Assembly (NCBI GenBank): GCA_902570155.1
Contig: CACFXU010000006.1
Coordinates: 7,215 to 71,214, forward strand
Source: an uncultured Alphaproteobacteria bacterium
Lineage (GTDB): Bacteria > Pseudomonadota > Alphaproteobacteria > HIMB59 > GCA-002718135
Reading direction: 5' to 3'
Length of the DNA: 64,000 nucleotides
A program made the translations under genes and the position numbers. Numbering within the stretch: position 1 is the first letter of the stretch; each line of letters starts with the position of its first letter. The notes beneath the pieces were generated by a model. It was not told the origin of the DNA. It ran no database searches and saw only the letters and a program-made list of their open reading frames with translations. Shown piece by piece: positions 10,733 to 31,812 of the stretch.

Positions 10733-10966
10733 ATGATCCGATTGTTAATAGTTTTAATTGTTATAGTAATTATATTATTTATTTTGAGATCAAGAGCCAA
10801 ATCACAATATAATAATTATGGAAACTTTTATAGAAATTTAATTTTAATAGTCATAATTGGAGGTATTGTCTTCTTTCTTGCAACAACTGGAAAATTCTTG
10901 ATACCACAGTTATTAAATCTTATTAAAGTTGGTTTACCATTCTTAACAAAATTAATAGGGATATAA
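10733..10966 (+). CDS. Hypothetical small membrane protein
   Basis: 77-aa ORF with 2-3 hydrophobic segments. Its stop overlaps the next gene's start by 1 nt. Confidence 0.45.
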   Translation: MIRLLIVLIVIVIILFILRSRAKSQYNNYGNFYRNLILIVIIGGIVFFLATTGKFLIPQLLNLIKVGLPFLTKLIGI

Positions 10967-11829
10967 TGAAATATTTCTCAACAAATGATCTACCCTTAAA
11001 CAATGAAATGATTAATTTTTGGAATAATAACGGATATTTGGTTATAGAAAATTTCAACACAGATAAAGAATGTGATGAATTAATGGAACGATCATCATAT
11101 CTTATCGAACATAATAATTTTAATAATCAAAAATCTATTTTTGATACAGTCAATCAAGCTCATAATGATGATAGTTATTTTTTAGAATCAGGAGATAAAA
11201 TTCGTTTCTTCTTTGAAGAAAAAGCTAATTTAAATGATGGTAACATAGAAGAAAATAAACATTTTATTGTAAATAAAATCGGTCATGCGTTGCATGACTT
11301 AGATGAAGTTTTTCATAAATTTTCTCATAAACAAAAACTTCAAGATATTGCTTTATCACTTGGTTTTTCAAAACCAAAATTACTTCAGTCAATGTATATT
11401 TTTAAGCAACCTAAAATAGGTGGTGAAGTAGTTTGTCATCAAGATTCTACTTTTTTATATACTCAGCCAGAAAGCACTATCGGTTTCTGGTTTGCATTAG
11501 AAGACGCAAATAAAACAAACGGATGTTTACAAGTTGCAAGTGGAGGTCATAAAGGCCCATTAAGAAAACTTTTTAAAAAAGTAGATGGTAAAATGCAAAT
11601 GATAGATCTAAATGATGAACCATTTCCTGAAACTGATACTTTTGTAGAAGTAAAAAAAGGATCACTTGTTTTATTGCATGGTAGACTTCCTCATTATTCA
11701 TGTGAGAATACAAGTTTAAAATCAAGACATGCTTACACAATTCATGTAATTGATAATAACAACGATTATCCTGAATGGAATTGGTTACAAAGATCTTCAA
11801 TACCTCTTAAAAGTTTCATTAATGACTAA
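10966..11829 (+). CDS. Phytanoyl-CoA dioxygenase (PhyH) family Fe(II)/2-oxoglutarate oxygenase
   Basis: 287 aa. HQD facial-triad start (VVCHQDSTF), downstream His in RHAYTIH, and the typical N-terminal W..NGY(L/V)V motif. Confidence 0.8.
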   Translation: MKYFSTNDLPLNNEMINFWNNNGYLVIENFNTDKECDELMERSSYLIEHNNFNNQKSIFDTVNQAHNDDSYFLESGDKIRFFFEEKANLNDGNIEENKHFIVNKIGHALHDLDEVFHKFSHKQKLQDIALSLGFSKPKLLQSMYIFKQPKIGGEVVCHQDSTFLYTQPESTIGFWFALEDANKTNGCLQVASGGHKGPLRKLFKKVDGKMQMIDLNDEPFPETDTFVEVKKGSLVLLHGRLPHYSCENTSLKSRHAYTIHVIDNNNDYPEWNWLQRSSIPLKSFIND

Positions 11830-12766
11830 AAAAATAATTTTAGATTGTGATCCAGGTCATGATGATGCTGTAGCAATAATGTTAGCTGCTTCTTCTAAAG
11901 AGATTGACTTACTGGGTATCACTTGTGTTGGTGGAAATAGTGGTTTAAATAACACAGTAAATAATGCTCTTAAAGTTTGTACGTTAATTGAAAGAACGGA
12001 CATCAAAGTTTACTCTGGTGCAAATAAACCTATTCATTATGAATTATTTACAGCTGAATATGTTCATGGAAAAACTGGATTAGATAAAAAAGGTGATCCT
12101 ATAATAATAGATACAAATTATAAACCTCAAGAAAAACATGCAGTTGATTTCATAGTAGAAACTTGTAAATCTTCAATAGAGCGAATTTATTTATGTCCAA
12201 CAGGACCTCTTACAAATATTGCCTTAAGTTTAAAAAAAGATCCGTCTATTAAAGAAAATATAAAAGAAATAGTTTTTATGGGTGGGGCTGCTATGTGCTT
12301 AGGAAATACTACACCTTCAGCTGAATTTAATATTTATGTGGATCCACATGCAGCTAATATTGTTTTAGAATCAGGCATTCCTTTAACAATGATGGGTTTA
12401 GATGTTACTCATCAGGTCAATGTAAATTCAAAAATTATCAAATCAATGAATGAAAATAAAAATAAAAGTTCTAAGTTTTTTGGAGAACTAATGGAATTTT
12501 ATACAATATTTCATAAAGAATTGTACGAAACTGAGGAAACGCCTTTGCATGACCCATGTGTCATTGCATATTTATTAGATCCATCAATTTTTAGTGGAAA
12601 AGAAGTTAATGTCACAGTTGAAGAAAATTCTGAATTAACAAGAGGGGAGACCGTTGTTGATTGGCTTGGTGTTACCAAAAGACCAGTAAATTGTTTTGTA
12701 ATGAATGAAGCTAATGATGAAAAATTTTTTCAATTACTTAAAACTAAATTATCGTTATTACCTTAA
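11822..12766 (+). CDS. Nucleoside hydrolase (inosine/uridine-preferring family)
   Basis: MTKKIILDCDPGHDDAVAI carries the DxDxxxDD fingerprint. The start is placed at ATG 11822 (ATGACTAA overlap with the PhyH stop) rather than at the longer 11750 ORF. Confidence 0.85.
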   Translation: MTKKIILDCDPGHDDAVAIMLAASSKEIDLLGITCVGGNSGLNNTVNNALKVCTLIERTDIKVYSGANKPIHYELFTAEYVHGKTGLDKKGDPIIIDTNYKPQEKHAVDFIVETCKSSIERIYLCPTGPLTNIALSLKKDPSIKENIKEIVFMGGAAMCLGNTTPSAEFNIYVDPHAANIVLESGIPLTMMGLDVTHQVNVNSKIIKSMNENKNKSSKFFGELMEFYTIFHKELYETEETPLHDPCVIAYLLDPSIFSGKEVNVTVEENSELTRGETVVDWLGVTKRPVNCFVMNEANDEKFFQLLKTKLSLLP

Positions 12767-13683
12767 GTATAAAAACTCTTTGCAATCTTTGCAGCTAAAT
12801 TTGCATTATTAATTATTAAAGATACATTAGCATTTAGAGTTTGATTTTTTGATTGTTCGTTAATTTCTTTTATAAGAAATGGTGTTAATTCTTTTCCACT
12901 AATATTATTTCTATAAGCTTTTATTGTTGCATTATTTATCCATTTTTCTACATCATTTTTATTAAGCGCTTTTTCAAATGGAACTTTATTAAATATGAGA
13001 ATTGATTTTTTATTTTCTATATTTTCATTAAGTTTTAAAAAAGAAGAAATTTCATGAATTTCATCAAATTTATTATCGACTTTATTTTCTGTTTCTTCAT
13101 ACCAAAAACCAGGCATATAATTTGTTTGATAACCAATTCTTGTAATTCCTAAAGTTTCAAGAAGTTCATTTGTTTTACTTAAATCTAAAATAGATTTAGC
13201 ACCACTACAGATTACAAAATTTGAATTCTCAGAAAGTGCATATAGATCTGCAGATACATCATTGGTATTTTCAGCATTTAGATGCACACCACCAATTCCT
13301 CCTGTTGCAAAAAATCTTATTTGAAATTTAGAAGCTATAGAAATCGTACTTGCTACTGTCGTAGCAGCATTTTCTTTATTAAATATTGATAAATTTATGT
13401 TGTGGTTTGAAACTTTTTGTACATTTTTCTCTTTTGCTAATATTTGAATATCTTTTTGCGATAATCCTATTTTAACCTTACCTCTAATTATTCCTATTGT
13501 TGCAGCAATTGCACCGTTATCTTCAACAGCCTTTATAGACTCATTTGCGACTTTAATATTTTCTGGATAGGGCAATCCATGACTAATCAATGTACTTTCT
13601 AAAGCTACTATTGGTTTTTTTCTATTTATTGCTTCTTGAACTTTTTTACTTATCTCAAATATTTCATGCATACTATTGTACAC
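12763..13683 (-). CDS. psuG: Pseudouridine-5'-phosphate glycosidase
   Basis: 306 aa. IVALESTLISHGLPYPEN and GGIGGVH motifs of the indigoidine-synthase-A-like/PsuG family. Confidence 0.9.
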   Translation of the reverse strand: MYNSMHEIFEISKKVQEAINRKKPIVALESTLISHGLPYPENIKVANESIKAVEDNGAIAATIGIIRGKVKIGLSQKDIQILAKEKNVQKVSNHNINLSIFNKENAATTVASTISIASKFQIRFFATGGIGGVHLNAENTNDVSADLYALSENSNFVICSGAKSILDLSKTNELLETLGITRIGYQTNYMPGFWYEETENKVDNKFDEIHEISSFLKLNENIENKKSILIFNKVPFEKALNKNDVEKWINNATIKAYRNNISGKELTPFLIKEINEQSKNQTLNANVSLIINNANLAAKIAKSFYT

Positions 13684-14560
13684 TCACTTTCTTAGAAAGA
13701 TTTATAATTTTTAAAAAATCACTATTAGTTTTTAGACTTTTACCACTAGCATAATAAGATCCGCATGCTACAGAAGTTTTCAGAATATAATTCATTTTTT
13801 CATTTATACTGAACAAATACAGCATCATAGCTGCTAGTGCATCTCCAGCTCCATTTTCGTTTACTACTTTGATTGATGGGGGTTTTATTCTTTTTATAAA
13901 TTCATTACTTCCAAAGATTACATTATTTTTTGAATTAGTAGTAATTATTTTTATTTTTTTATTTTGTTTTAATATTTTTTTTACACCTACTATTATATTT
14001 GAAGAATTTGTAAGTTTAAGTAACTCTGCTTTATTTAAGAATATAAAATCAATTTTATTTATAATCCTTTTAATTTTAATTACTTTATGCACTGATGTTG
14101 CGCACACTATAATTTTATTTTTTTTTGATAGTTTATTTATTGATTTTTCCAAATAGGTTTTAGAAAAATTTAGATCAAATATTATATTTTTATTCTTGAT
14201 GTTTGGTATTTTTAAAGATTTATTATTTTCATATTCATCTGTGTTAGCTAATCCTAATAAAAATTTATTATTTTTATCTGATAAAGCTAAATAGTATCTA
14301 TCTGCATAACTTTTATTCACTTGATGAAAATATATTTTTTTTGAGATTTTTTTTCTAATCTCTTCATTGATAGCTAAACTATAAAAGTTTACATCAACAA
14401 AATTCGAAAGCAATTCTGCAATATTGTAGGCTACTCCACCAATTCTGCTTTTTTGTGTAATTTGATTAGATCTAAAATTAATAATATTTTTTTTAAGATT
14501 TAATAAATAATCGTGATGAATTGCCCCAATACAAACAAAAATGTTTTTAGATTTCAGCAT
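13673..14560 (-). CDS. psuK: PfkB-family carbohydrate kinase, probable pseudouridine kinase
   Basis: 295 aa. C-terminal NENGAGDALAA (the PfkB GAGD motif). 11-nt overlap with psuG immediately downstream. Confidence 0.7.
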   Translation of the reverse strand: MLKSKNIFVCIGAIHHDYLLNLKKNIINFRSNQITQKSRIGGVAYNIAELLSNFVDVNFYSLAINEEIRKKISKKIYFHQVNKSYADRYYLALSDKNNKFLLGLANTDEYENNKSLKIPNIKNKNIIFDLNFSKTYLEKSINKLSKKNKIIVCATSVHKVIKIKRIINKIDFIFLNKAELLKLTNSSNIIVGVKKILKQNKKIKIITTNSKNNVIFGSNEFIKRIKPPSIKVVNENGAGDALAAMMLYLFSINEKMNYILKTSVACGSYYASGKSLKTNSDFLKIINLSKKVSVQ

Positions 14561-17500
14561 TATGAACTATACACCTTTTATGTCAGTTTTTGATGTTGAT
14601 CCACCTATTATTGATAATAAACATTTAATTAAATGGTTAAAGATTAATTTTTCTTTCTTAAGAAATAAATTACTCAAAATTAAACAACTTGATAGTGAAA
14701 GGGACATAAATTTTATTATATTCATAAATAATAAAAAAAAATATGTATTAAAAATTTCAAACCCATCAGAAAAAATAAATATACTAAAATACCAAGATAG
14801 ATTAATTAATTATTTACGAAGTGATCTAAGTCTTAAATCTTTTATACCCAAAATATACCATACAAAGATTGTAAAATATTTAGATACAAAAAATAGAGAA
14901 TGCTTTGTTAGGATCTTATCTTATATTGAAGGGCGAATGTATGGAGATACCAAAAGTAACGATAAAATTGAAAATTCTTTAGGTAAGTTACTTGGAAAAG
15001 TATCAACTAAATTGCAAGCATTTAACCATATAGATGCTCATAGAAATTTTATTTGGGATCCATCAAATATAAAATGGATTAAAAAAGATATTAATATTTT
15101 TACAGGTTCAAAAAAATTAATTTTATTAAAATGTTTTTCAGAATATGAAAAATTTGTAAAAAATAATTTAAATAAATTAAGATATTCAATTACTCATTCA
15201 GATCCAAATAATTATAATATTGTTATTAAAAAAAATAATGTTTGTGGTTTACTAGATTATGGAGATTCTATTTATTCTCCAACAATAAATGATTTAGCTA
15301 TATGTCTTTCCTATGCATTAATGAATAATAATAATATTTATCTTACACTTAAAAATATAATCACAGAGTACAATAAACAGTTTTCTATTAATGAGGATGA
15401 AATTAATTCATTAATATCATTATGTAAGTCAAGACTTATGATTACTGTAGTAATGGCAAAAAAACAAAGAATTAAATATCCATCAAATCAATATTTAAGT
15501 ATTAGTGAGAAAGATGCCTGGTCTTTATTAGAAAAATTAGACAAAATTCCTATCAATTTTTTAATATATATTGTTCGCGAAATATGCGGCTTTGATATTA
15601 TTCACCACCATAATGAAACTATAAATTATATAAATAAATTCAACTTTGGTAATATTTTTAATTTTAATTTACTTGATAAAAATAAATCTATCTTAAAATT
15701 AAGTTCTGATTCACCTTTATTAAAAGGTAACCCAGATAATAGTTTGCTTAAGAAAAGAGTTAATAAAATATTTAAGGAAGATAATTCTCGTATAGGAATA
15801 GGTTTATACAATGAAAAAAGAAAAGTTTATAAGGGACCTAACTTTATTTCTGAATTAAATGCGAATGAAAGACGTAATATTCATTTAGGCGTAGATATCT
15901 TTATTGATCAAGGAACAGATTTATTTGCGCCAATAGATGGCAAAATTATAATTTTAAAAAATAATAATTTTAAATATGACTATGGTCCCACTCTAGTTTT
16001 GGAACATAGTTTTAAAAAATATAAATTTTATACTTTATACGGGCATTTATCCAAAATAATGTTTCAAAAACTAAAAATTGGAAAAAAAATTAAGAAAGGT
16101 GAATGGATTGGTAAAATTGGTAATTCTAATGAAAATGGAAAATGGTTACCACATTTACATTTTCAAATTATTTTAGATTTATTAGGACATGATAAGAATT
16201 TTCCAGGAGTAGGTGAAGAATTTTTATTCAATATTTGGAATAAAATTTCACCTGATCCAAATTTAATTCTACGAATTCCAAAATCTTTTTATTCTAATAA
16301 TAATAATTTTAAAGATACTTTAAAAAAAAGAAGAAAAAATATTTCTGATAATTTATCAATTTCTTATAAGGAACCTCTTCATATGCTTGAAGCTAAAGAT
16401 CAGTATTTTTTTGATAGATATGGCAGGAGATACTTAGATTGTGTAAATAATATTTCCCATGTTGGGCATTCAAATTCCTATGTACATGAAGCTATGACTA
16501 AGCAAAATTTAAAACTTAATACTAATACGAGATATCTATACGATACAATTAACGATTATAGTGAATTACTTTTAAGTAAGTTTCCAAAGAAATTAAATAA
16601 GATATTTTTCGTATGTACAGGATCTGAAGCTAATGATTTAGCTTATAGAATAGCTCAAACTTATACTAGTGCAAAAGATGTCTTTGTGATGGACAATGCT
16701 TATCATGGGCATACCAATGCTTTAATTGATCTAAGTCCATACAAATTTAATAGTAAGGGTGGTTTAGGTAAAAAAGATTATGTTCACGTATTAGATATGC
16801 CTGATCCTTTAAGAGGTAAGTGGAGATATCAAAATTCAAATTGGATTCAAAAATATATAGATGAAGCTAAAACAGTAATTAGAAATAAAATTAAAGAAAC
16901 AAAAATTGCATGTTTTTTTTCTGAAAGTATACTTGGTTGTGGTGGTCAAGTAATTCTTCCAAAAAATTATTTAAAAGAAATATTTTCAGAAATTAGAAAA
17001 AACAATGCATTATGTATTGTTGATGAAGTACAAACTGGTTTTGGACGCGTTGGAAGAAATTTTTGGTCATTTGAAGAGCATGATGTCGTTCCTGATATAG
17101 TAACCTTGGGAAAACCTATGGGTAATGGTCATCCTATAGCTGCTGTTATAACTACAGATAAAATAGCTTCAACTTTTAATAATGGGATGGAATATTTTAA
17201 TTCATTCGGTGGTAATCCCGTTTCCTGCGCTATCGGTAAAGCAGTATTAGAGACAATTGATAATAATAAATTACAAAAAAATGCTTTGTTAGTTGGTAAT
17301 TATTTTTTAAAAAAATTAAAAAAAATTCAACTTAAATATAAAAAATATATTAGTGAAGTTAGAGGTAGGGGGCTTTTTTTAGGAATAGATATTATTCAAA
17401 ATAGTAATGTGTCTAAACCAAACAAAAAATTAGCTAAATTGCTTATTAATTATATGAGAAATCAAGGTATTTTGTTGAGCACTGATGGCCCTTATGACAA

Positions 17501-17591
17501 TGTTATTAAAATAAAACCACCTCTTGTATTTACAAAATTAAATGTTGATCAGGTATGTAAAAACTTAGAAACCTTCTTTAAAAAATTATAA
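14541..17591 (+). CDS. Tri-domain protein: APH/hydroxylysine-kinase-like kinase + M23 peptidase + class-III aminotransferase-fold (phospho-lyase-like) domain
   Basis: 1016 aa. Kinase loop HSDPNNYN and DYGD. M23 motifs HLGVD, YGHLS and PHLHFQ. PLP domain with DEVQTGFGRVG and GKPMGNGHP. Alternative starts at ATG 14562 or 14580 would remove the 5' overlap with psuK. Confidence 0.85.
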   Translation: MFLDFSIMNYTPFMSVFDVDPPIIDNKHLIKWLKINFSFLRNKLLKIKQLDSERDINFIIFINNKKKYVLKISNPSEKINILKYQDRLINYLRSDLSLKSFIPKIYHTKIVKYLDTKNRECFVRILSYIEGRMYGDTKSNDKIENSLGKLLGKVSTKLQAFNHIDAHRNFIWDPSNIKWIKKDINIFTGSKKLILLKCFSEYEKFVKNNLNKLRYSITHSDPNNYNIVIKKNNVCGLLDYGDSIYSPTINDLAICLSYALMNNNNIYLTLKNIITEYNKQFSINEDEINSLISLCKSRLMITVVMAKKQRIKYPSNQYLSISEKDAWSLLEKLDKIPINFLIYIVREICGFDIIHHHNETINYINKFNFGNIFNFNLLDKNKSILKLSSDSPLLKGNPDNSLLKKRVNKIFKEDNSRIGIGLYNEKRKVYKGPNFISELNANERRNIHLGVDIFIDQGTDLFAPIDGKIIILKNNNFKYDYGPTLVLEHSFKKYKFYTLYGHLSKIMFQKLKIGKKIKKGEWIGKIGNSNENGKWLPHLHFQIILDLLGHDKNFPGVGEEFLFNIWNKISPDPNLILRIPKSFYSNNNNFKDTLKKRRKNISDNLSISYKEPLHMLEAKDQYFFDRYGRRYLDCVNNISHVGHSNSYVHEAMTKQNLKLNTNTRYLYDTINDYSELLLSKFPKKLNKIFFVCTGSEANDLAYRIAQTYTSAKDVFVMDNAYHGHTNALIDLSPYKFNSKGGLGKKDYVHVLDMPDPLRGKWRYQNSNWIQKYIDEAKTVIRNKIKETKIACFFSESILGCGGQVILPKNYLKEIFSEIRKNNALCIVDEVQTGFGRVGRNFWSFEEHDVVPDIVTLGKPMGNGHPIAAVITTDKIASTFNNGMEYFNSFGGNPVSCAIGKAVLETIDNNKLQKNALLVGNYFLKKLKKIQLKYKKYISEVRGRGLFLGIDIIQNSNVSKPNKKLAKLLINYMRNQGILLSTDGPYDNVIKIKPPLVFTKLNVDQVCKNLETFFKKL

Positions 17592-18177
17592 AATATATTC
17601 CATAACTAATCATTAGCATGCCAATGGTTAGATCAATCCAAAACCAAGTTTTATTTGAATAAATATATTTTGATAAGAACTTTGACATATATCCTAAAGA
17701 AAAGAAAAACAAAAAACTAGCTGAAATTGCTCCAATGCCAAATGAAAATTGATCATTAAAATTTGTTGATAATGATCCCAGCAAAATAATTGTATCTAGA
17801 TAAACATGAGGATTTGCGTATGTAATGAGGAGTAAGGTAATTAGTATTTTACCGAATTCGTTGATTATATTTAATTCTTTATTTATATCTTTGAATTTAT
17901 TTAATTTTATAACTTTATTTAATCCATAAAATATAAGCCAAATTCCTCCTAATACTTTTATTATTCCTATAATACTTGGATTAATTTGAACAATATAATT
18001 AGATAGATATATTCCGATTATAATTAGTAAACTGTCTGATAGACTGCAAAATAAAGTAACTGTAAAAACATAAGATTTTTTAAGCCCTTGCTGTATTACA
18101 AATAAATTTTGAGGTCCTATAGCTATAATTAATGTTCCTCCAATTATTAATCCTTGGATAAAATCATAAATATACAT
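17578..18177 (-). CDS. LysE/ArgO-family amino-acid exporter
   Basis: 199 aa, 6 TM. N-terminal GPQNLFVIQQG motif typical of LysE/ArgO. Confidence 0.8.
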   Translation of the reverse strand: MYIYDFIQGLIIGGTLIIAIGPQNLFVIQQGLKKSYVFTVTLFCSLSDSLLIIIGIYLSNYIVQINPSIIGIIKVLGGIWLIFYGLNKVIKLNKFKDINKELNIINEFGKILITLLLITYANPHVYLDTIILLGSLSTNFNDQFSFGIGAISASFLFFFSLGYMSKFLSKYIYSNKTWFWIDLTIGMLMISYGIYFIIF

Positions 18178-18212: not shown

Positions 18213-18671
18213 ATGCACAAAATTATATTGTTTAGTTTGTTTATTTTATTATCAAAAAATGTTTATGGAGAAATGATAAAACCAGACCCTTCAATTGGCC
18301 CTAAAGAAGTTATTTCAATTCAATTAAAAGCACTACAAAAAAATAATTTACCTTTTGACGATGCTGGTATTGAACAAACTTGGGAATTTGCACATCCAAA
18401 TAATAGAATGTACACAGGTCCTCTAGACAATTTTATTAGGATGATTAAAAATCCATCTTACGCAATGATGATTGATCACTTAGAACACAATATAATTCCT
18501 GTTAAGGAACAAGAAAAAAGTTCATATTACTTTGTAGAGCTTACAGATAGTAATGGAAAAAAATTTGGTTTCGAATGGACAGTAGAAAAAGTAGAGCAAA
18601 ACGGTGTGTTTAAAGATTGCTGGATGACTGTCGGTGTTTCTAGACCAATGCCTTTATCACAAGCATCATAG
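18213..18671 (+). CDS. Secreted hypothetical protein, DUF4864-like
   Basis: 152 aa with an N-terminal signal peptide. IQLKALQKNN...AFEFAHPNN... resembles my recollection of DUF4864. Confidence 0.5.
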   Translation: MHKIILFSLFILLSKNVYGEMIKPDPSIGPKEVISIQLKALQKNNLPFDDAGIEQTWEFAHPNNRMYTGPLDNFIRMIKNPSYAMMIDHLEHNIIPVKEQEKSSYYFVELTDSNGKKFGFEWTVEKVEQNGVFKDCWMTVGVSRPMPLSQAS

Positions 18672-19327
18672 TGTGCGGAAGATTTACAAGCACTGAAGAT
18701 AAAGAAAAAATTACAAAACTATTTCCTAACTCAGAAGTTTTAAATTACGCACATAAGTCTTACAATATATCACCTTCTAATATCGTTAATATTATTTATG
18801 AAAATAATCATAAACTTTTAATAGATACTTTTATTTGGAGTTATAGTTTTTTTAGTAAACAAAATAATGTTACTCAATTTGTTATTAATGCAAGAATTGA
18901 AACGATTAATGATAAATATTTATTTAAAGAATCATTTACTAAAAGAAAATGTCTTATTATTGCAAATGGATATTATGAATGGAAAAATATAAATAATCAA
19001 AAACAACCCTATTTAATATCAATTCCTAGAAATGAATTATTATTTTTTGGTGGAATTTGGAGGGAAGAAGTAAGAGATAATAAAAAAATGAATGTTTTCT
19101 GTATCATTACTAAGGAGGCCAATGAAAATCTTTCCCATATACATAATAGAATGCCTCTTATTATGTCTCATAATGAGGGTCTTGATTTTCTTAATGATAA
19201 TGAAAATGAATTTCTACATAAAAACAAAAGTGTTATCGAGGATGATTTAGACTTTTATCCAGTATCAAAAATTGTAAATAATCCAAAAAATAATGATGAA
19301 AATTGCCTTAAAGAAATATCTTTATAA
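18671..19327 (+). CDS. SOS-response-associated peptidase (SRAP/YedK, abasic-site processing protein)
   Basis: Begins MCGRF. The catalytic Cys must be residue 2, which fixes the GTG start at 18671. YYEW and HNRMP motifs are present. Confidence 0.85.
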   Translation: MCGRFTSTEDKEKITKLFPNSEVLNYAHKSYNISPSNIVNIIYENNHKLLIDTFIWSYSFFSKQNNVTQFVINARIETINDKYLFKESFTKRKCLIIANGYYEWKNINNQKQPYLISIPRNELLFFGGIWREEVRDNKKMNVFCIITKEANENLSHIHNRMPLIMSHNEGLDFLNDNENEFLHKNKSVIEDDLDFYPVSKIVNNPKNNDENCLKEISL

Positions 19328-19383: not shown

Positions 19384-20322
19384 ATGAGCCATTTATTTTA
19401 TAAACCTGCAAAATCTAGATTACACAGAAGTGAATTGGCAGTTCCAGGCTCTAATACAAAGATGTTTGAAAAAGCATTAAAATCAAATGCCGATTATATT
19501 TTTTTAGATTTAGAAGATGCAGTATCTCCAAATGATAAAATTGATGCAAGAAAAAATGTTATAAATGCAATAAAAGAATACAATTGGAGAGAAGAAGGTA
19601 AAACAATCTCTATAAGAATTAACGGCTTGGATACACACTATATGTATCGTGATGTGATTGAAATTATAGAAGAGGTCGGTGATAAGATTGATACATTATT
19701 AATTCCAAAAGTAGGCTCATCATCTGATGTATATATGGTTGATTGTATGCTCAATCAAATTGAACAAAATAAAAAATTTAAAAATAGAATAGGTTTAGAA
19801 TGTTTAATTGAAACAGCACTAGGAATGTCTAACATCCAATCAATTGCAACATCAAGTTCTAGACTAGAAGCATTACACTTTGGAGTTGCAGATTATGCTG
19901 CAAGTATGCGAGCAAGAACTGTTGTCATAGGAGGTTTAAATCCTGATTATCCTGGTGATCAATGGCATCATGGCTTATCAACTTTAGTAATGACTTGTAG
20001 ATCATATGGCTTAAGAGCAATAGACGGACCTTTTGGAGACTTTAATGACAAACAAGGATATCTTGATGCAGCAAAAAGAGCGGCAGCAATTGGTTTTGAG
20101 GGTAAATGGGCAATACATCCATCGCAAATAGATTTAGCTAATGAAGTTTTTTCTCCGCCCAAAGCAGAAATAGATAAAGCAAAAAGAATATTATTAGAAT
20201 TAGAAAAAGCAGCTGCTGAAGGAAAGGGTGCTGCTCAGCTTGATGGAAGAATGATCGATGCTGCATCTGCAAGAATGGCTGAAAATATTGTAAATATTAA
20301 TAAGTTAATTGAAAGTAAGTAA
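19384..20322 (+). CDS. mcl: L-malyl-CoA/beta-methylmalyl-CoA lyase (HpcH/HpaI-CitE family)
   Basis: 312 aa. LDLEDAVSP, SIRINGLDT, IDGPFGDFND and GKWAIHPSQ match remembered Mcl1 sequences. Confidence 0.85.
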   Translation: MSHLFYKPAKSRLHRSELAVPGSNTKMFEKALKSNADYIFLDLEDAVSPNDKIDARKNVINAIKEYNWREEGKTISIRINGLDTHYMYRDVIEIIEEVGDKIDTLLIPKVGSSSDVYMVDCMLNQIEQNKKFKNRIGLECLIETALGMSNIQSIATSSSRLEALHFGVADYAASMRARTVVIGGLNPDYPGDQWHHGLSTLVMTCRSYGLRAIDGPFGDFNDKQGYLDAAKRAAAIGFEGKWAIHPSQIDLANEVFSPPKAEIDKAKRILLELEKAAAEGKGAAQLDGRMIDAASARMAENIVNINKLIESK

Positions 20323-21482
20323 TGGATATACACGAATATCAAGCAAAAAAAATATTGTCAGATTTTGGTGTTAAAATTCCCACTGGCGGTATTGTTTATA
20401 GTCCAGAAAATGCAGAAAATAAAGCTAGAGAAATTGGTGGTTCTAAATGGGTTGTAAAAGCGCAAGTTCACTCTGGTGCTAGAGGTAAAGCAGGAGGAAT
20501 TATAATATGTAATTCTCCGTTAGAAGTTGCCGATGCAACTGATAAATTGTTAGGTAAAAAATTAATTACAAAACAAACTGGTCCAGAGGGTAAGATAATA
20601 AATAGAATTTATATTGAAGAAGCAACTGATATCAAACATGAATTATATTTAGGTTTAGTGTTTGATAGATCTTCAGAAAGTATAATGGTTGTAGCCTCAA
20701 CAGAAGGTGGAATGAGTGTCGAAGAAATTTCAAAAGAAAAACCTGAAACAATTATACGATCTAAAATAGAAGTAGCAGTTGGTATTCAACAATTTCAAGC
20801 AAGAGAAATAGCTTTTGGTTTAGGAATTGAATCCAAATTGATCTCAAGAGCTGCAAATACAATTATTGGTTGTTATAAAGCTTTTAGTGAGCTTGATGCA
20901 ACAATGGTTGAAGTTAACCCATTAGTTGTATCACACCAAGATGAAATACTAGCATTAGATTGTAAAATGAGTTTTGATAATAATGCAATGTTTAGAAGAG
21001 ATGAAATTGCAGAACTTAGAGATAAAACACAAGAAAATATAAATGAAGTTTATGCTTCTGACAGAGGTATGAATTATGTAAGCTTAGATGGGAATATTGG
21101 TAATATTATTAATGGTGCAGGCTTAGCAATGGCTTCAATGGATATGATAAAACTTGCTGGTGGTGAACCTGCAAATTTTTTAGATGTTGGCGGAGGTGCA
21201 ACACCTGAAAAAATAGTTAAAGCTTTTAAATTAATATCGATGGACACAAAAGTTAAGGTAATATTAGTTAATATATTTGCGGGGATTAACAGATGTGATT
21301 GGGTTGCAGAAGGAATTGTTCAAGCTTTATCAAAAATTGACATTAAACATCCTTTAGTTATACGTTTAGCTGGAACTAACGTCGAAAAGGGAAATGAAAT
21401 ACTTAAAAAAAGCAATATAAATTACATTGAAGCATCAACTTTAGAAGATGCAGCAAATAAAGCAGTGAAGGCTCTTGGATAA
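20322..21482 (+). CDS. mtkA: Malate--CoA ligase (malate thiokinase) beta subunit; SucC paralogue
   Basis: 386 aa ATP-grasp. QQFQAREIAF, KMSFDNNAMFRR and NIFAGINRCDWVAEG (21270-21314) match my memory of MtkA rather than SucC (NIFGGIVRCD). Context directly after mcl. Confidence 0.8.
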   Translation: MDIHEYQAKKILSDFGVKIPTGGIVYSPENAENKAREIGGSKWVVKAQVHSGARGKAGGIIICNSPLEVADATDKLLGKKLITKQTGPEGKIINRIYIEEATDIKHELYLGLVFDRSSESIMVVASTEGGMSVEEISKEKPETIIRSKIEVAVGIQQFQAREIAFGLGIESKLISRAANTIIGCYKAFSELDATMVEVNPLVVSHQDEILALDCKMSFDNNAMFRRDEIAELRDKTQENINEVYASDRGMNYVSLDGNIGNIINGAGLAMASMDMIKLAGGEPANFLDVGGGATPEKIVKAFKLISMDTKVKVILVNIFAGINRCDWVAEGIVQALSKIDIKHPLVIRLAGTNVEKGNEILKKSNINYIEASTLEDAANKAVKALG

Positions 21483-21484
21483 TC

Positions 21485-22381
21485 ATGTCTATAATCATTC
21501 ACAAAAATACAAAGATTTTAGTCCAAGGTTTCACTGGAAAAATTGGAAGTTTTCATGCTGAAGAAATGATTAAGTATGGTTCTAACGTTGTTGGCGGGGT
21601 AACACCTGGTAAGGGTGGCATGACTCATTTAAATCTTCCTGTTTTTAATACTGTTAAAGAAGCTGTAGATCAAACTGGAGCATCAACATCAATTTTATTT
21701 GTCCCACCAGCCTTTGCAGCTGACTCAGCAATGGAAGCTGCTGATGCAGGTATTAAGACCTGTGTGGCTATTACTGACGGTATTCCATCTCATGATATGG
21801 TTAAAATAAAAAGATACATGAGAAGATATCCAAAAGATAAAAAAATGGGATTAGTAGGTCCAAATTGTGCAGGAATAATTAGTCCTGGTAAATCTATGTT
21901 AGGTATTATGCCTGGCCACATTTACAAAGAAGGTAAAATAGGAATAGTTAGTAGATCTGGCACTTTGGGATATGAAGCTGCACAACAACTTAAAGATTTG
22001 GAAATTGGTGTTTCAACAAGTGTGGGTATAGGAGGTGATCCAATAAATGGAAGTTCTTTTAGAGATATAATTGAAAAGTTTGAAAATGATGATGAAACTA
22101 TTGCAGTTTTAATGATAGGTGAAATAGGTGGCCCACAAGAAGTTGAAGCTGGACAATTTGCTAAAGAAAATATGAATAAACCAGTAATTGCGTATATAGC
22201 AGGACTAACTGCACCTAAAGGTCGTGTCATGGGGCATGCTGGCGCAATTGTTTCTGCTTATGGTGAAAGCGCAATAGAAAAAGTAGAACTTCTTAAAGAG
22301 TGTGGAGTTACAATTTCCAAAAACCCTTCTGTAATGGGTGAAACTGTAAAAAAAGTATTAGTAGAAAATAATTTGAATTAA
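21485..22381 (+). CDS. mtkB: Malate--CoA ligase alpha subunit; SucD paralogue
   Basis: 298 aa. CoA-binding GFTGK, SRSGTLGYE and the phospho-His loop GHAGA. Confidence 0.8.
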   Translation: MSIIIHKNTKILVQGFTGKIGSFHAEEMIKYGSNVVGGVTPGKGGMTHLNLPVFNTVKEAVDQTGASTSILFVPPAFAADSAMEAADAGIKTCVAITDGIPSHDMVKIKRYMRRYPKDKKMGLVGPNCAGIISPGKSMLGIMPGHIYKEGKIGIVSRSGTLGYEAAQQLKDLEIGVSTSVGIGGDPINGSSFRDIIEKFENDDETIAVLMIGEIGGPQEVEAGQFAKENMNKPVIAYIAGLTAPKGRVMGHAGAIVSAYGESAIEKVELLKECGVTISKNPSVMGETVKKVLVENNLN

Positions 22382-30477: not shown

Positions 30478-31812
30478 ATGTTACAAAGAAATACTTCCAG
30501 CCATTTATATGGATTTACTGACTTGAAGTCATTAAATGAAAGAGGCCCTTTAGTTATTTCTTATGGAAAAGGAATATATGTTTACGATACTAAAGGTAAT
30601 AAATATCTAGATGGGAATTCTGGTCTATGGAATCAGTGTGCTGGTTTTGACCATCCTGGATTAATTGAAGTTGCAAAAAAACAGTATGAAAAATTTGCTG
30701 GTTATCATTCTTTATTTGGAAGATTGTCTGAAGAAACGTTGCAGCTATCTGAAAAAATTATTGAAGTATCACCTTTTGATCAAGGTCGTGTATTCTTTTG
30801 TAATTCAGGATCCGAAGCAAATGACACCATGGTCAAAATGTTATGGATGTTAAATGCAAGAATTGGAAAGCCAAATAGACGAAAAATTATAACAAGAATT
30901 AATGGATATCATGGCGTTACTTTAGGAGCTTCTTCAATGACTGCCAAACCATACAATAAAGAGTTTGGATTACCATCAAAGGAATTTATTCATATTGAAT
31001 GTCCTCATTTTTGGAAATATGGATTAGAGAATGAAACGGAAGAAGAATTTTCTCTTAGGATGGCCAAAAATTTAGAAGAAAAAATTATCAAAGAGGATCC
31101 AGAAACTATTGCAGGTTTTGTTGCAGAGCCTGTTCAAGGTGCAGGAGGTTGTATACCTCCTTCAAAATCGTATTTTGATTTAGTTCAACCTATATTAAAA
31201 AAATATAATATTCCTTTTATCGCAGATGAAGTAATTTGCGGATTTGGTAGAACTGGAAATTTATGGGGTTGTAAAACCTACAATATCAAACCAGATATAA
31301 TTATCTCATCTAAATGTTTAACTGCTGGGTATTTTCCTATGGGTGCAGTTATAGTTAATAAAGAATTTTCAGATAAATTTGTTGAAGTATCAGAAGAAGC
31401 AGAAGAATTTCCACATGGTTTTACAGCTGGTGGTCATCCTGTTGGATGTGCAATTGCTTTGAAAGCAATAGATGTAATTATGAATGAGGGTTTATTAGAT
31501 AATGTAAAGTTGATGGAACCCTATTTTTTTGAAAGATTAAATGAATTTAATGATTATGAACACATTGGAGAAACTAGAGGTATAGGTCTTATGGCTGCAT
31601 TAGAGATGGTAAAAAATAAAGATACAAAAGAACCATTTGAAGGTCATCTTAATATGGGAGATAAAGTTGCTAATTTATCAATTGATAATGGATTAATTTG
31701 CAGACCTTTAGGTCCTGCAATCGTTTTGTGTCCTCAGTTTATAATTACTAAATATCAGATTGATGAAATATTTGACTCACTTCATAAAACTATAAAACAA
31801 GTTTTTAATTAA
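30478..31812 (+). CDS. Class-III omega-amine:pyruvate aminotransferase
   Basis: 444 aa. NSGSEANDTMVKMLW, DEVICGFGRTGNLWGC, SSKCLTAGYFPMGAV and EFPHGFTAGGHPVGCAIALKAIDVIMNEGL. From memory it aligns closely along its whole length with the Vibrio fluvialis amine:pyruvate transaminase. Confidence 0.9.
   Translation: MLQRNTSSHLYGFTDLKSLNERGPLVISYGKGIYVYDTKGNKYLDGNSGLWNQCAGFDHPGLIEVAKKQYEKFAGYHSLFGRLSEETLQLSEKIIEVSPFDQGRVFFCNSGSEANDTMVKMLWMLNARIGKPNRRKIITRINGYHGVTLGASSMTAKPYNKEFGLPSKEFIHIECPHFWKYGLENETEEEFSLRMAKNLEEKIIKEDPETIAGFVAEPVQGAGGCIPPSKSYFDLVQPILKKYNIPFIADEVICGFGRTGNLWGCKTYNIKPDIIISSKCLTAGYFPMGAVIVNKEFSDKFVEVSEEAEEFPHGFTAGGHPVGCAIALKAIDVIMNEGLLDNVKLMEPYFFERLNEFNDYEHIGETRGIGLMAALEMVKNKDTKEPFEGHLNMGDKVANLSIDNGLICRPLGPAIVLCPQFIITKYQIDEIFDSLHKTIKQVFN

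Follow-up and report, generated by a model that had tools for sequence, protein, structure and literature searches.

Introduction

Amino alcohols can be degraded in two enzymatic steps, in which a kinase phosphorylates the hydroxyl group and a phospho-lyase dependent on pyridoxal 5'-phosphate (PLP) then eliminates phosphate and ammonia. This logic has been published for the animal enzymes HYKK/PHYKPL and ETNPPL, and an earlier, sequence-only reading of the DNA studied here had named kinase plus phospho-lyase as the established route for amino alcohols. In animals the substrate of ETNPPL comes from an ethanolamine kinase of the choline-kinase family and not from an APH-type kinase. In mycobacteria an aminopropanol kinase and its partner phospho-lyase follow the kinase-then-lyase route as separate proteins housed in an aminoacetone microcompartment. 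Bacterial bi- and tri-functional proteins that fuse AGXT2L to an APH kinase reportedly led Veiga-da-Cunha and colleagues in 2012 to identify HYKK, PHYKPL and ETNPPL. The present analysis concerns a gene with this kind of architecture on a 64,000-nucleotide stretch of DNA, here called the window (contig CACFXU010000006.1 of assembly GCA_902570155.1, positions 7,215 to 71,214), from an uncultured alphaproteobacterium of the HIMB59 lineage. The gene joins an APH-fold kinase domain, an M23 (LytM-type) zinc-peptidase module and a class-III-fold PLP domain in one polypeptide. Judged from its sequence and its relatives, the product is likely to be a cytoplasmic multifunctional catabolic enzyme that degrades an amino alcohol by kinase and then phospho-lyase chemistry.

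Reading frame and expression of the fusion gene

The sequence-only reading described a single open reading frame (ORF) at 14541-17591 that joins the three domains, and most of this description stands. The maximal ORF on the forward strand (+), which carries all features of the fusion given below, is intact, encodes 1016 aa and contains one stop, at its end; a Pfam scan finds the three domains in it, each above its gathering score. At the window's GC content of 26.7%, a run of 1016 codons free of stops would occur by chance with a probability of about 1e-41. The maximal ORF opens at position 14541, which is not the likely start of translation. The only start codon common to all 26 homologues compared (26/26; 59-96% identity) is M14 at 14580, and M8 at 14562 is the annotated start in closer relatives. 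Codons 1-13 of the maximal ORF also overlap the 5' end of a divergent PfkB-like gene that starts at 14560 (-). Translation thus probably begins at M14 or M8, which would give a protein of 1003 or 1009 aa. With this overlap of the two 5' ends, each promoter must lie inside the other gene.

A marine metatranscriptome contig of 2081 nt, about 97% identical to the gene, spans 14820-16900 and runs from the kinase through the M23 module into the PLP domain unbroken, and pieces of the gene are also present in three further metatranscriptomes. This unbroken contig rules out an artefact of assembly or frameshift and shows the fusion to be real in natural populations. The gene is probably transcribed, with DNA carry-over in the metatranscriptome libraries as another possible source of these sequences. 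The nearest copies, 95-98% identical, come from single-cell genomes named 'uncultured Alphaproteobacteria bacterium AG-...'. The copy in a metagenome-assembled genome (MAG) named HIMB59 is 62% identical, and proteins carrying MarineAlpha5 and Pelagibacteraceae names are 60-74% identical. These relatives place the window in a streamlined marine alphaproteobacterium of the HIMB59/SAR11 type.

Inspection of the translation alone reveals no hydrophobic signal segment at the N-terminus (MSVFDVDPPIIDNKH...). A full-length AlphaFold2 model, built on a shallow alignment of close relatives only, reaches a predicted template-modelling score (pTM) of 0.45, and its linkers at residues 377-450 and 548-644 fall below 50 in predicted local distance difference test score (pLDDT). 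With this pTM and these low-confidence linkers, the model lends no support to the suggestion that the phospho-intermediate is channelled from one active site to the other.

Assignment of the PLP domain to the phospho-lyases

The class-III-fold PLP domain occupies 16311-17579, falls within the phospho-lyase clade and matches Pfam Aminotran_3 (PF00202) over residues 613-1011 (E 7.3e-77; 259 bits against a cut-off of 30.5). Its cofactor-binding residues were compared with those of 123 divergent full-length representatives of the family, each at least 900 aa long and at most 50% identical to any other. The Schiff-base lysine K858 (17112-17114) is kept in 121 of these relatives and the PLP-N1 aspartate D828 (17022-17024) in 122. 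The domain carries the motifs DEVQ (17022-17033), TLGKPMGNGHP (17103-17135) and IKIKPP (17505-17522), and a further block quoted by the sequence-only reading, MEYFNSFGGNPVSC, is found in the translated ORF.

That reading had placed the domain nearer to ETNPPL-type phospho-lyases than to transaminases, and structural, motif and tree comparisons all agree with it. In a comparison with every PDB sequence, 6tor (human ETNPPL) reaches 5e-124, 5g4i (Arthrobacter A1RDF1) 6e-87 and the best non-lyase 4e-44, and the E-value gap between lyase and transaminase structures amounts to 40-80 orders of magnitude. A Foldseek search with the AlphaFold2 model ranks 6tor first (template-modelling score 0.82, normalised to the target) and 5g4i second, and its top 50 entries are matches to the PLP domain only. 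The signature NNISHVGH at residues 636-643 has its counterparts in NNVAHVGH of 6tor and NNVPHVGH of 5g4i, and the pattern NN[IV]xHVGH is not present in the transaminase and racemase matches, including 9wrf and 7vno. Residues N636, N637, H640, G642 and H643 of the signature are invariant among 29 fusions, a set that covers Alphaproteobacteria, Chloroflexota, Acidobacteriota, Bacteroidota, Actinomycetota, Desulfobacterota-type bacteria, Verrucomicrobiota and Deinococcota. On the fusion protein, the NCBIfam transaminase models all score far under their cut-offs.

A neighbour-joining tree was built from 40 fusion PLP domains, the window's domain, 6tor, 5g4i and three outgroups, namely a racemase, a gamma-aminobutyrate-transaminase-like enzyme and an omega-transaminase encoded in the window itself. 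The lyase clade, in which 6tor and 5g4i are the characterised members, receives bootstrap support of 100/100, and the PLP domain does not group with true transaminases, a placement that the sequence-only reading had named as contrary to its assignment. No replicate (0/100) recovers the fusion PLP domains as a group of their own, and human ETNPPL therefore nests among them. The window's domain grouped with bi-functional forms in this tree, a placement that was left uninterpreted, as its lineage is represented by a single sequence and compositional attraction is likely. On all of these sequence comparisons, the domain belongs with the phospho-lyases and not with the transaminases. The omega-transaminase used as an outgroup is a separate 444-aa omega-amine:pyruvate transaminase at 30478-31812 (+), which matches 4e3q and 3nui (Vibrio-type pyruvate transaminases) at 2e-193 and NCBIfam PRK06105 with 537 bits, over the cut-off of 517. 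Together with the fusion PLP domain it presents the contrast between lyase and transaminase inside one genome.

The kinase domain

The N-terminal domain (residues ~40-360; 14658-15620) has the fold of APH-type small-molecule kinases and is modelled with a pLDDT of about 90. Pfam APH (PF01636) matches residues 64-260 with an E-value of 3.8e-10 and 40.4 bits against a cut-off of 23.2. The beta3 lysine K71 (14751-14753) is present in 119 of the 123 relatives. The catalytic loop HSDPNNYN (15195-15218), of the form HxDxxxxN, contains H219, the base D221 and the metal ligand N226, and both D221 and N226 are kept in 123/123. The metal motif DYGD (15255-15266; D239, G241, D242), equivalent to DFG, has its first aspartate in 123/123 and D242 in 122/123. 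Both motifs had been picked out by the sequence-only reading, the loop at exactly this position.

All 29 kinase domains of the relatives from several phyla match Pfam APH, with a best E-value of 5e-27, and none of them matches the choline/ethanolamine-kinase Pfam family (PF01633) at E <= 0.01. As a single sequence, the window's kinase domain finds no solved relative in the PDB. A profile of the 29 sequences retrieves homoserine kinase II 2ppq, 6ef6, which is taken to be the mycobacterial aminopropanol kinase, and the amicoumacin kinase 6sum, each at about 5e-6. The nearest named NCBIfam family for this part of the protein is homoserine kinase. By its motifs and its matches, the N-terminal domain is a predicted small-molecule hydroxyl kinase, of a type to which amino-alcohol kinases also belong.

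The M23 module

Between the kinase and the M23 core lies an inter-domain segment with a family-specific lead-in (15621-15872; GIGLYNEKRKVY at 15795-15830). Model confidence is low across this segment before the M23 module, and G421, E425, R427 and Y430 of the lead-in do not vary among the 29 sequences, which are drawn from several phyla. The M23 (LytM-type) zinc-peptidase core itself extends over 15873-16175 and matches Pfam Peptidase_M23 at residues 447-544 (E 4.1e-17; 62.6 bits against a cut-off of 28.7). Its catalytic set is complete, in keeping with the complete M23/LytM module claimed by the sequence-only reading, which had assigned it no function. HLGVD (15882-15896) supplies the zinc ligands H448-x3-D452, YGHL (16038-16049) the catalytic H502 at 16044-16046, and PHLHFQ (16149-16166) the pair H538-x-H540 at 16152-16160. 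All five residues align one-to-one with those of the solved peptidases 6jmx and 2hsi.

This pentad (H448, D452, H502, H538, H540) is invariant in the 29 fusions and fully kept in 104 of the 123 representatives (85%), and identity to distant relatives is 47% in the M23 core and 48% in the PLP domain. Such conservation indicates that the module is under strong, though not universal, selection. The catalytic residues of the kinase are kept in 123/123 representatives and those of the PLP domain in at least 121/123. Roughly 18 of 149 representatives have no middle domain at all and consist, at 750-800 aa, of kinase and lyase only. This pattern of residue retention, together with the kinase-lyase-only forms, marks the kinase-lyase pair as the obligatory core of the family and the M23 module as an accessory.

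A group of members of about 960-1000 aa (P0198, P0201, P0206, P0219, P0228, P0245, P0250, P0256, P0265) retains a middle domain of M23 length in which the HxxxD and HxH motifs are replaced. These degenerate members parallel the degenerate LytM factors, and the NCBIfam model PRK06149 seems to describe them.

The extracytoplasmic location typical of the M23 family was not found for this module, which sits between two cytoplasmic enzyme domains. As inspection reveals no signal peptide, peptidoglycan would be out of its reach.

Family membership, distribution and annotation

The fusion architecture is already known, and the window gene adds one more member to an established family. Its novelty had been overrated by the sequence-only reading, since the architecture is modelled in NCBIfam PRK06148, which aligns fusion residues 46-1014 to model positions 29-1009 of 1015 and so takes in all three domains. 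A second model, PRK06149 ('aminotransferase'), covers the kinase and PLP parts and barely matches the M23 region. PRK06148 is titled 'hypothetical protein', and neither model bears a functional name. Two reviews (PMC12138971; PMC5714238) cite the 2012 study of Veiga-da-Cunha and colleagues as a gene-fusion or comparative-genomics route to such functions.

At least 548 species genomes encode a relative, as do at least 589 metagenome contigs, and the cultured genus Kiloniella is among the carriers. Full-length fusions make up more than 100 clusters at 50% identity, and among the best loci they come from at least eight phyla. A specifically marine substrate, as suggested by the sequence-only reading, finds no support in this distribution: the fusion is also encoded by members of Chloroflexota, Acidobacteriota, Bacteroidota, Actinomycetota and further phyla, and many of the samples are non-marine. 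In public databases these proteins are named '5-aminovalerate aminotransferase DavT', 'aminotransferase class III-fold PLP-dependent enzyme', 'Peptidase M23' or 'hypothetical'.

Gene neighbourhood

Flanking ORFs were clustered all-against-all, in 30 loci and then in 106 (88 of them non-redundant). No partner gene is conserved across phyla among the 88 non-redundant loci, which display lineage synteny only, plus a few neighbours related to amino acids. Polar amino-acid ABC transporters of the SBP_bac_3 type and their permeases are adjacent to or operonic with the fusion in about 5 of the 88, and Lrp/AsnC regulators adjoin it in 5/88. In a MAG of the Verrucomicrobiota (L076:11000-13224, +), the start of an AlaDh_PNT_N gene of the lysine-ketoglutarate-reductase type overlaps the stop of the fusion and is followed by a saccharopine dehydrogenase gene. 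The arrangement looks like an operon in which 2-aminoadipate semialdehyde, a product both of the saccharopine pathway and of 5-phosphohydroxylysine phospho-lyase, would connect the fusion with lysine catabolism. An OCD/mu-crystallin gene, with or without a gene of the Pro_racemase family, accompanies the fusion in three loci (L054, L073, L068). It lies directly upstream in L073:5712-7929 (+) and L054:6806-7795 (+), the former also with a proline-racemase-family gene of the hydroxyproline epimerase/dehydratase type. This informative minority of neighbours points to an amino-acid-like substrate.

The pairing of OCD/mu-crystallin and proline-racemase genes resembles the arrangement in hydroxyproline and cyclic-imine catabolism.

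In the window, a LysE/ArgO-family translocator gene (17578-18177, -; Pfam LysE) is convergent with the fusion gene and overlaps its 3' end by 14 nt. It scores 137 bits with the NCBIfam L-lysine exporter model and 126 bits with ArgO, both under cut-off, and it stays at position +1 in four HIMB59-type loci in which fusion identity falls as low as 61%. A weak functional link between this neighbour and the fusion is possible, and the gene counts among the hints at an amino-acid-type substrate.

The most recurrent upstream gene, found in eight groups, encodes an NGP[IL]S/T-repeat protein. This candidate partner was set aside because its recurrence probably reflects lineage synteny. The protein is secreted, about 380 aa long and without a Pfam match, and its gene directly precedes the fusion gene, in the same orientation, in eight non-redundant lineages from metagenomes (loci L106, L108, L111, L114, L116-L118, L122, L126, L127, L133). 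A DUF4953 Met-zincin protease is encoded farther upstream in four of the eight.

Proposed pathway and alternative explanations

In the pathway proposed from the domain order and the catalytic motifs, the N-terminal APH-fold kinase would phosphorylate the hydroxyl group of a vicinal (1,2-) amino alcohol. The C-terminal PLP domain would then hold the amine as an external aldimine and eliminate phosphate, and the enamine/imine product would hydrolyse to an aldehyde and ammonium. The net reaction would be amino alcohol + nucleoside triphosphate -> aldehyde + NH4+ + inorganic phosphate + nucleoside diphosphate. The cell would gain nitrogen and a carbon skeleton from it with no need of an amino acceptor or vitamin B12. 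From 5-hydroxy-L-lysine the route would yield 2-aminoadipate semialdehyde, and from ethanolamine it would yield acetaldehyde. Where it is intact, the M23 module may release the substrate from an amide or a small peptide, but some lineages do without the module. In this scheme the enzymatic activities and the order in which they act are inferred, and so are the substrate and any function of M23.

Several observations weigh against it or against its parts. PRK06148 scores 1021.4 bits on the fusion, narrowly under the curated cut-off of 1128, a shortfall that is probably due to the extreme AT-driven composition of this 27% GC genome. A search of the open literature found no measured activity of, or other experimental work on, the bacterial fusion, and nothing relevant on its M23 module. 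About 75 of the 88 non-redundant loci have no recurrent context of any kind. At least one M23 catalytic residue is lost in 19 of the 123 representatives, and M23 catalysis is consequently not needed family-wide. The remaining points concern the substrate. The PLP domain shares 48% identity with human ETNPPL, which is specific for O-phosphoethanolamine (PEtn), and both this identity and the PEtn activity of A1RDF1 favour ethanolamine over hydroxylysine. The abundance of ethanolamine transporters in marine Alphaproteobacteria also makes ethanolamine ecologically plausible (PMC10132767).

A substrate of the type of 5-hydroxylysine or a similar hydroxy-amino acid is accordingly proposed only tentatively, and a B12-independent catabolism of ethanolamine has to be set beside it. 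In that alternative the kinase would form PEtn and the lyase would convert it into acetaldehyde, ammonium and phosphate. It gains from the fact that the closest solved PLP relative, human ETNPPL, nests among the fusion domains, and from the bacterial stand-alone relative A1RDF1, which is a PEtn phospho-lyase (PDB entry titles; PMC6750192). In marine Alphaproteobacteria, among them Pelagibacterales, the ethanolamine transporter etoX is both abundant and expressed (PMC10132767), and a streamlined oligotroph would presumably profit from a route that dispenses with a cofactor-heavy pathway or a microcompartment. The kinase, however, matches Pfam APH and not the choline/ethanolamine-kinase family (0/29 at E <= 0.01). 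An ethanolamine transporter, a eut gene and an aldehyde dehydrogenase are all missing from the recurrent neighbours, and the informative neighbours encode transporters and regulators of the amino-acid type and enzymes related to lysine or proline. Both animal paralogues were, moreover, reportedly found in the 2012 work to be similarly related to bacterial proteins, in which case identity to ETNPPL would not discriminate between them. Ethanolamine is therefore regarded as a possible though doubtful substrate, and a compound other than ethanolamine or a hydroxy-amino acid is likewise possible without being favoured. On balance, an amino alcohol of the amino-acid type, for instance 5-hydroxy-L-lysine, is slightly favoured over ethanolamine.

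The middle domain invites a similar comparison. If the M23 module were an active cytoplasmic zinc amidase or peptidase, it could carry out the first step by cleaving a small glycine-rich peptide or amide to set the amino alcohol free, with hydroxylysine di- and tripeptides from collagen-like or diatom cell-wall proteins as candidate substrates. This role is unlikely on present evidence. If true, it would make the fusion a three-step machine that hydrolyses, phosphorylates and eliminates, and would provide the first M23 domain in a metabolism unrelated to the cell wall. The module may instead be a non-peptidase spacer with a structural, oligomerisation or regulatory function, which would join a monomeric kinase to a dimeric PLP enzyme and use zinc for stability only, in the manner of degenerate LytM-domain factors. 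The losses of catalytic residues described above in lineages whose kinase and PLP residues are retained, the absence of the middle domain in some representatives, the poor match of PRK06149 to the M23 region and the lack of access to peptidoglycan all fit a spacer. A pentad that is invariant in the 29 sequences and complete in 85% of the representatives is unexpected for a pure spacer, as is a core conserved to the same extent as the PLP domain, and the spacer function is accordingly entertained with reserve. A more radical alternative makes the PLP domain an ordinary omega-aminotransferase and treats the kinase and M23 domains as unrelated passengers. It is suggested by the public names 'DavT' and 'aminotransferase class III-fold PLP-dependent enzyme', and by a fold and PLP-binding residues that are common to transaminases. 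It is very improbable given the scores of the NCBIfam transaminase models, the E-value gap between lyase and transaminase structures and the full bootstrap support for the lyase clade. The three domains also remain fused across several phyla, among the at least 548 species genomes that encode a relative.

The kinase/phospho-lyase assignment gives support for renaming the public entries as kinase/phospho-lyase fusions. Metabolic reconstructions would change with the new name, both for the abundant marine bacteria of the HIMB59/SAR11 type and for many soil phyla. To these reconstructions the fusion would add a route of ATP-driven ammonium release from an amino alcohol that requires neither an amino acceptor nor B12. 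The remaining interest lies in which amino alcohol is used and in why most lineages keep an intact M23 zinc peptidase inside a cytoplasmic catabolic enzyme.

Other genes in the window

Divergent from the fusion gene is a nucleoside-salvage cluster at 11750-14560. It comprises the PfkB-family kinase gene (13673-14560, -), a gene for an Indigoidine_A/PsuG-like protein (12763-13683, -) that forms with it a pair of the pseudouridine kinase/glycosidase type, and an inosine-uridine nucleoside hydrolase gene (11750-12766, +). Within the PfkB-like gene, contig depth in four marine metatranscriptomes spikes to 26-212 at 13904-14137, against about 1-30 in the flanks. A small RNA at this position was set aside as less likely: the segment is AT-rich and of low complexity (poly-T), it has no Rfam match, and cross-mapping is the most likely cause of the spike.

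On the other side of the fusion, the region 19384-22381 (+) holds a gene of the HpcH/HpaI aldolase or citrate-lyase-beta type, identified by Pfam, followed by genes resembling those for the beta and alpha subunits of succinyl-CoA synthetase, identified by reading of the translation. This is possibly an arrangement of malyl-CoA lyase with malate/succinate thiokinase. The region around the fusion is flanked by genes for a PhyH-family Fe/2-oxoglutarate dioxygenase (10966-11829, +; no NCBIfam name) and an SOS-response-associated peptidase (SRAP; 18671-19327, +), and no link of either to the fusion was found.

Comparison with known systems

The closest described enzyme is human ETNPPL (AGXT2L1; 6TOR), which scores 418 bits and shares 48% identity over trimmed columns with the fusion PLP domain, and which has the PLP lysine, the aspartate and the NNxxHVGH signature in common with it. 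ETNPPL differs in being a stand-alone enzyme with no fused kinase or M23 module. Arthrobacter aurescens A1RDF1 (5G4I) is bacterial and shares the lyase clade and the signature motifs. It is also a stand-alone protein and lies farther from the fusion than ETNPPL (38% versus 48% identity), with a weakly supported placement relative to the fusions (20/100 bootstraps). The human pair HYKK (AGPHD1) and PHYKPL (AGXT2L2) resembles the fusion in combining an APH-type kinase with a subsequent class-III-fold ammonio-phospho-lyase. This likeness lies in the two-step logic, and the two animal enzymes are encoded by separate genes and have no M23 module. The mycobacterial aminopropanol kinase, which is presumably the protein of 6EF6, is among the three best solved matches of the kinase profile (6.4e-6). 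The relationship is remote, and the mycobacterial proteins are separate and encapsulated, whereas no microcompartment shell genes were seen at this locus.

The middle domain shares its fold and the full HxxxD...H...HxH set with M23/LytM enzymes such as 6JMX (Pgp3/Csd3-type), ShyA, LytM and lysostaphin, and some family members have degenerate sites like those of the degenerate LytM factors EnvC and NlpD. Canonical M23 peptidases are secreted enzymes that cleave peptidoglycan or peptides rich in glycine, whereas the module of the fusion lies inside a protein that lacks a signal peptide, and its substrate must therefore differ from theirs.

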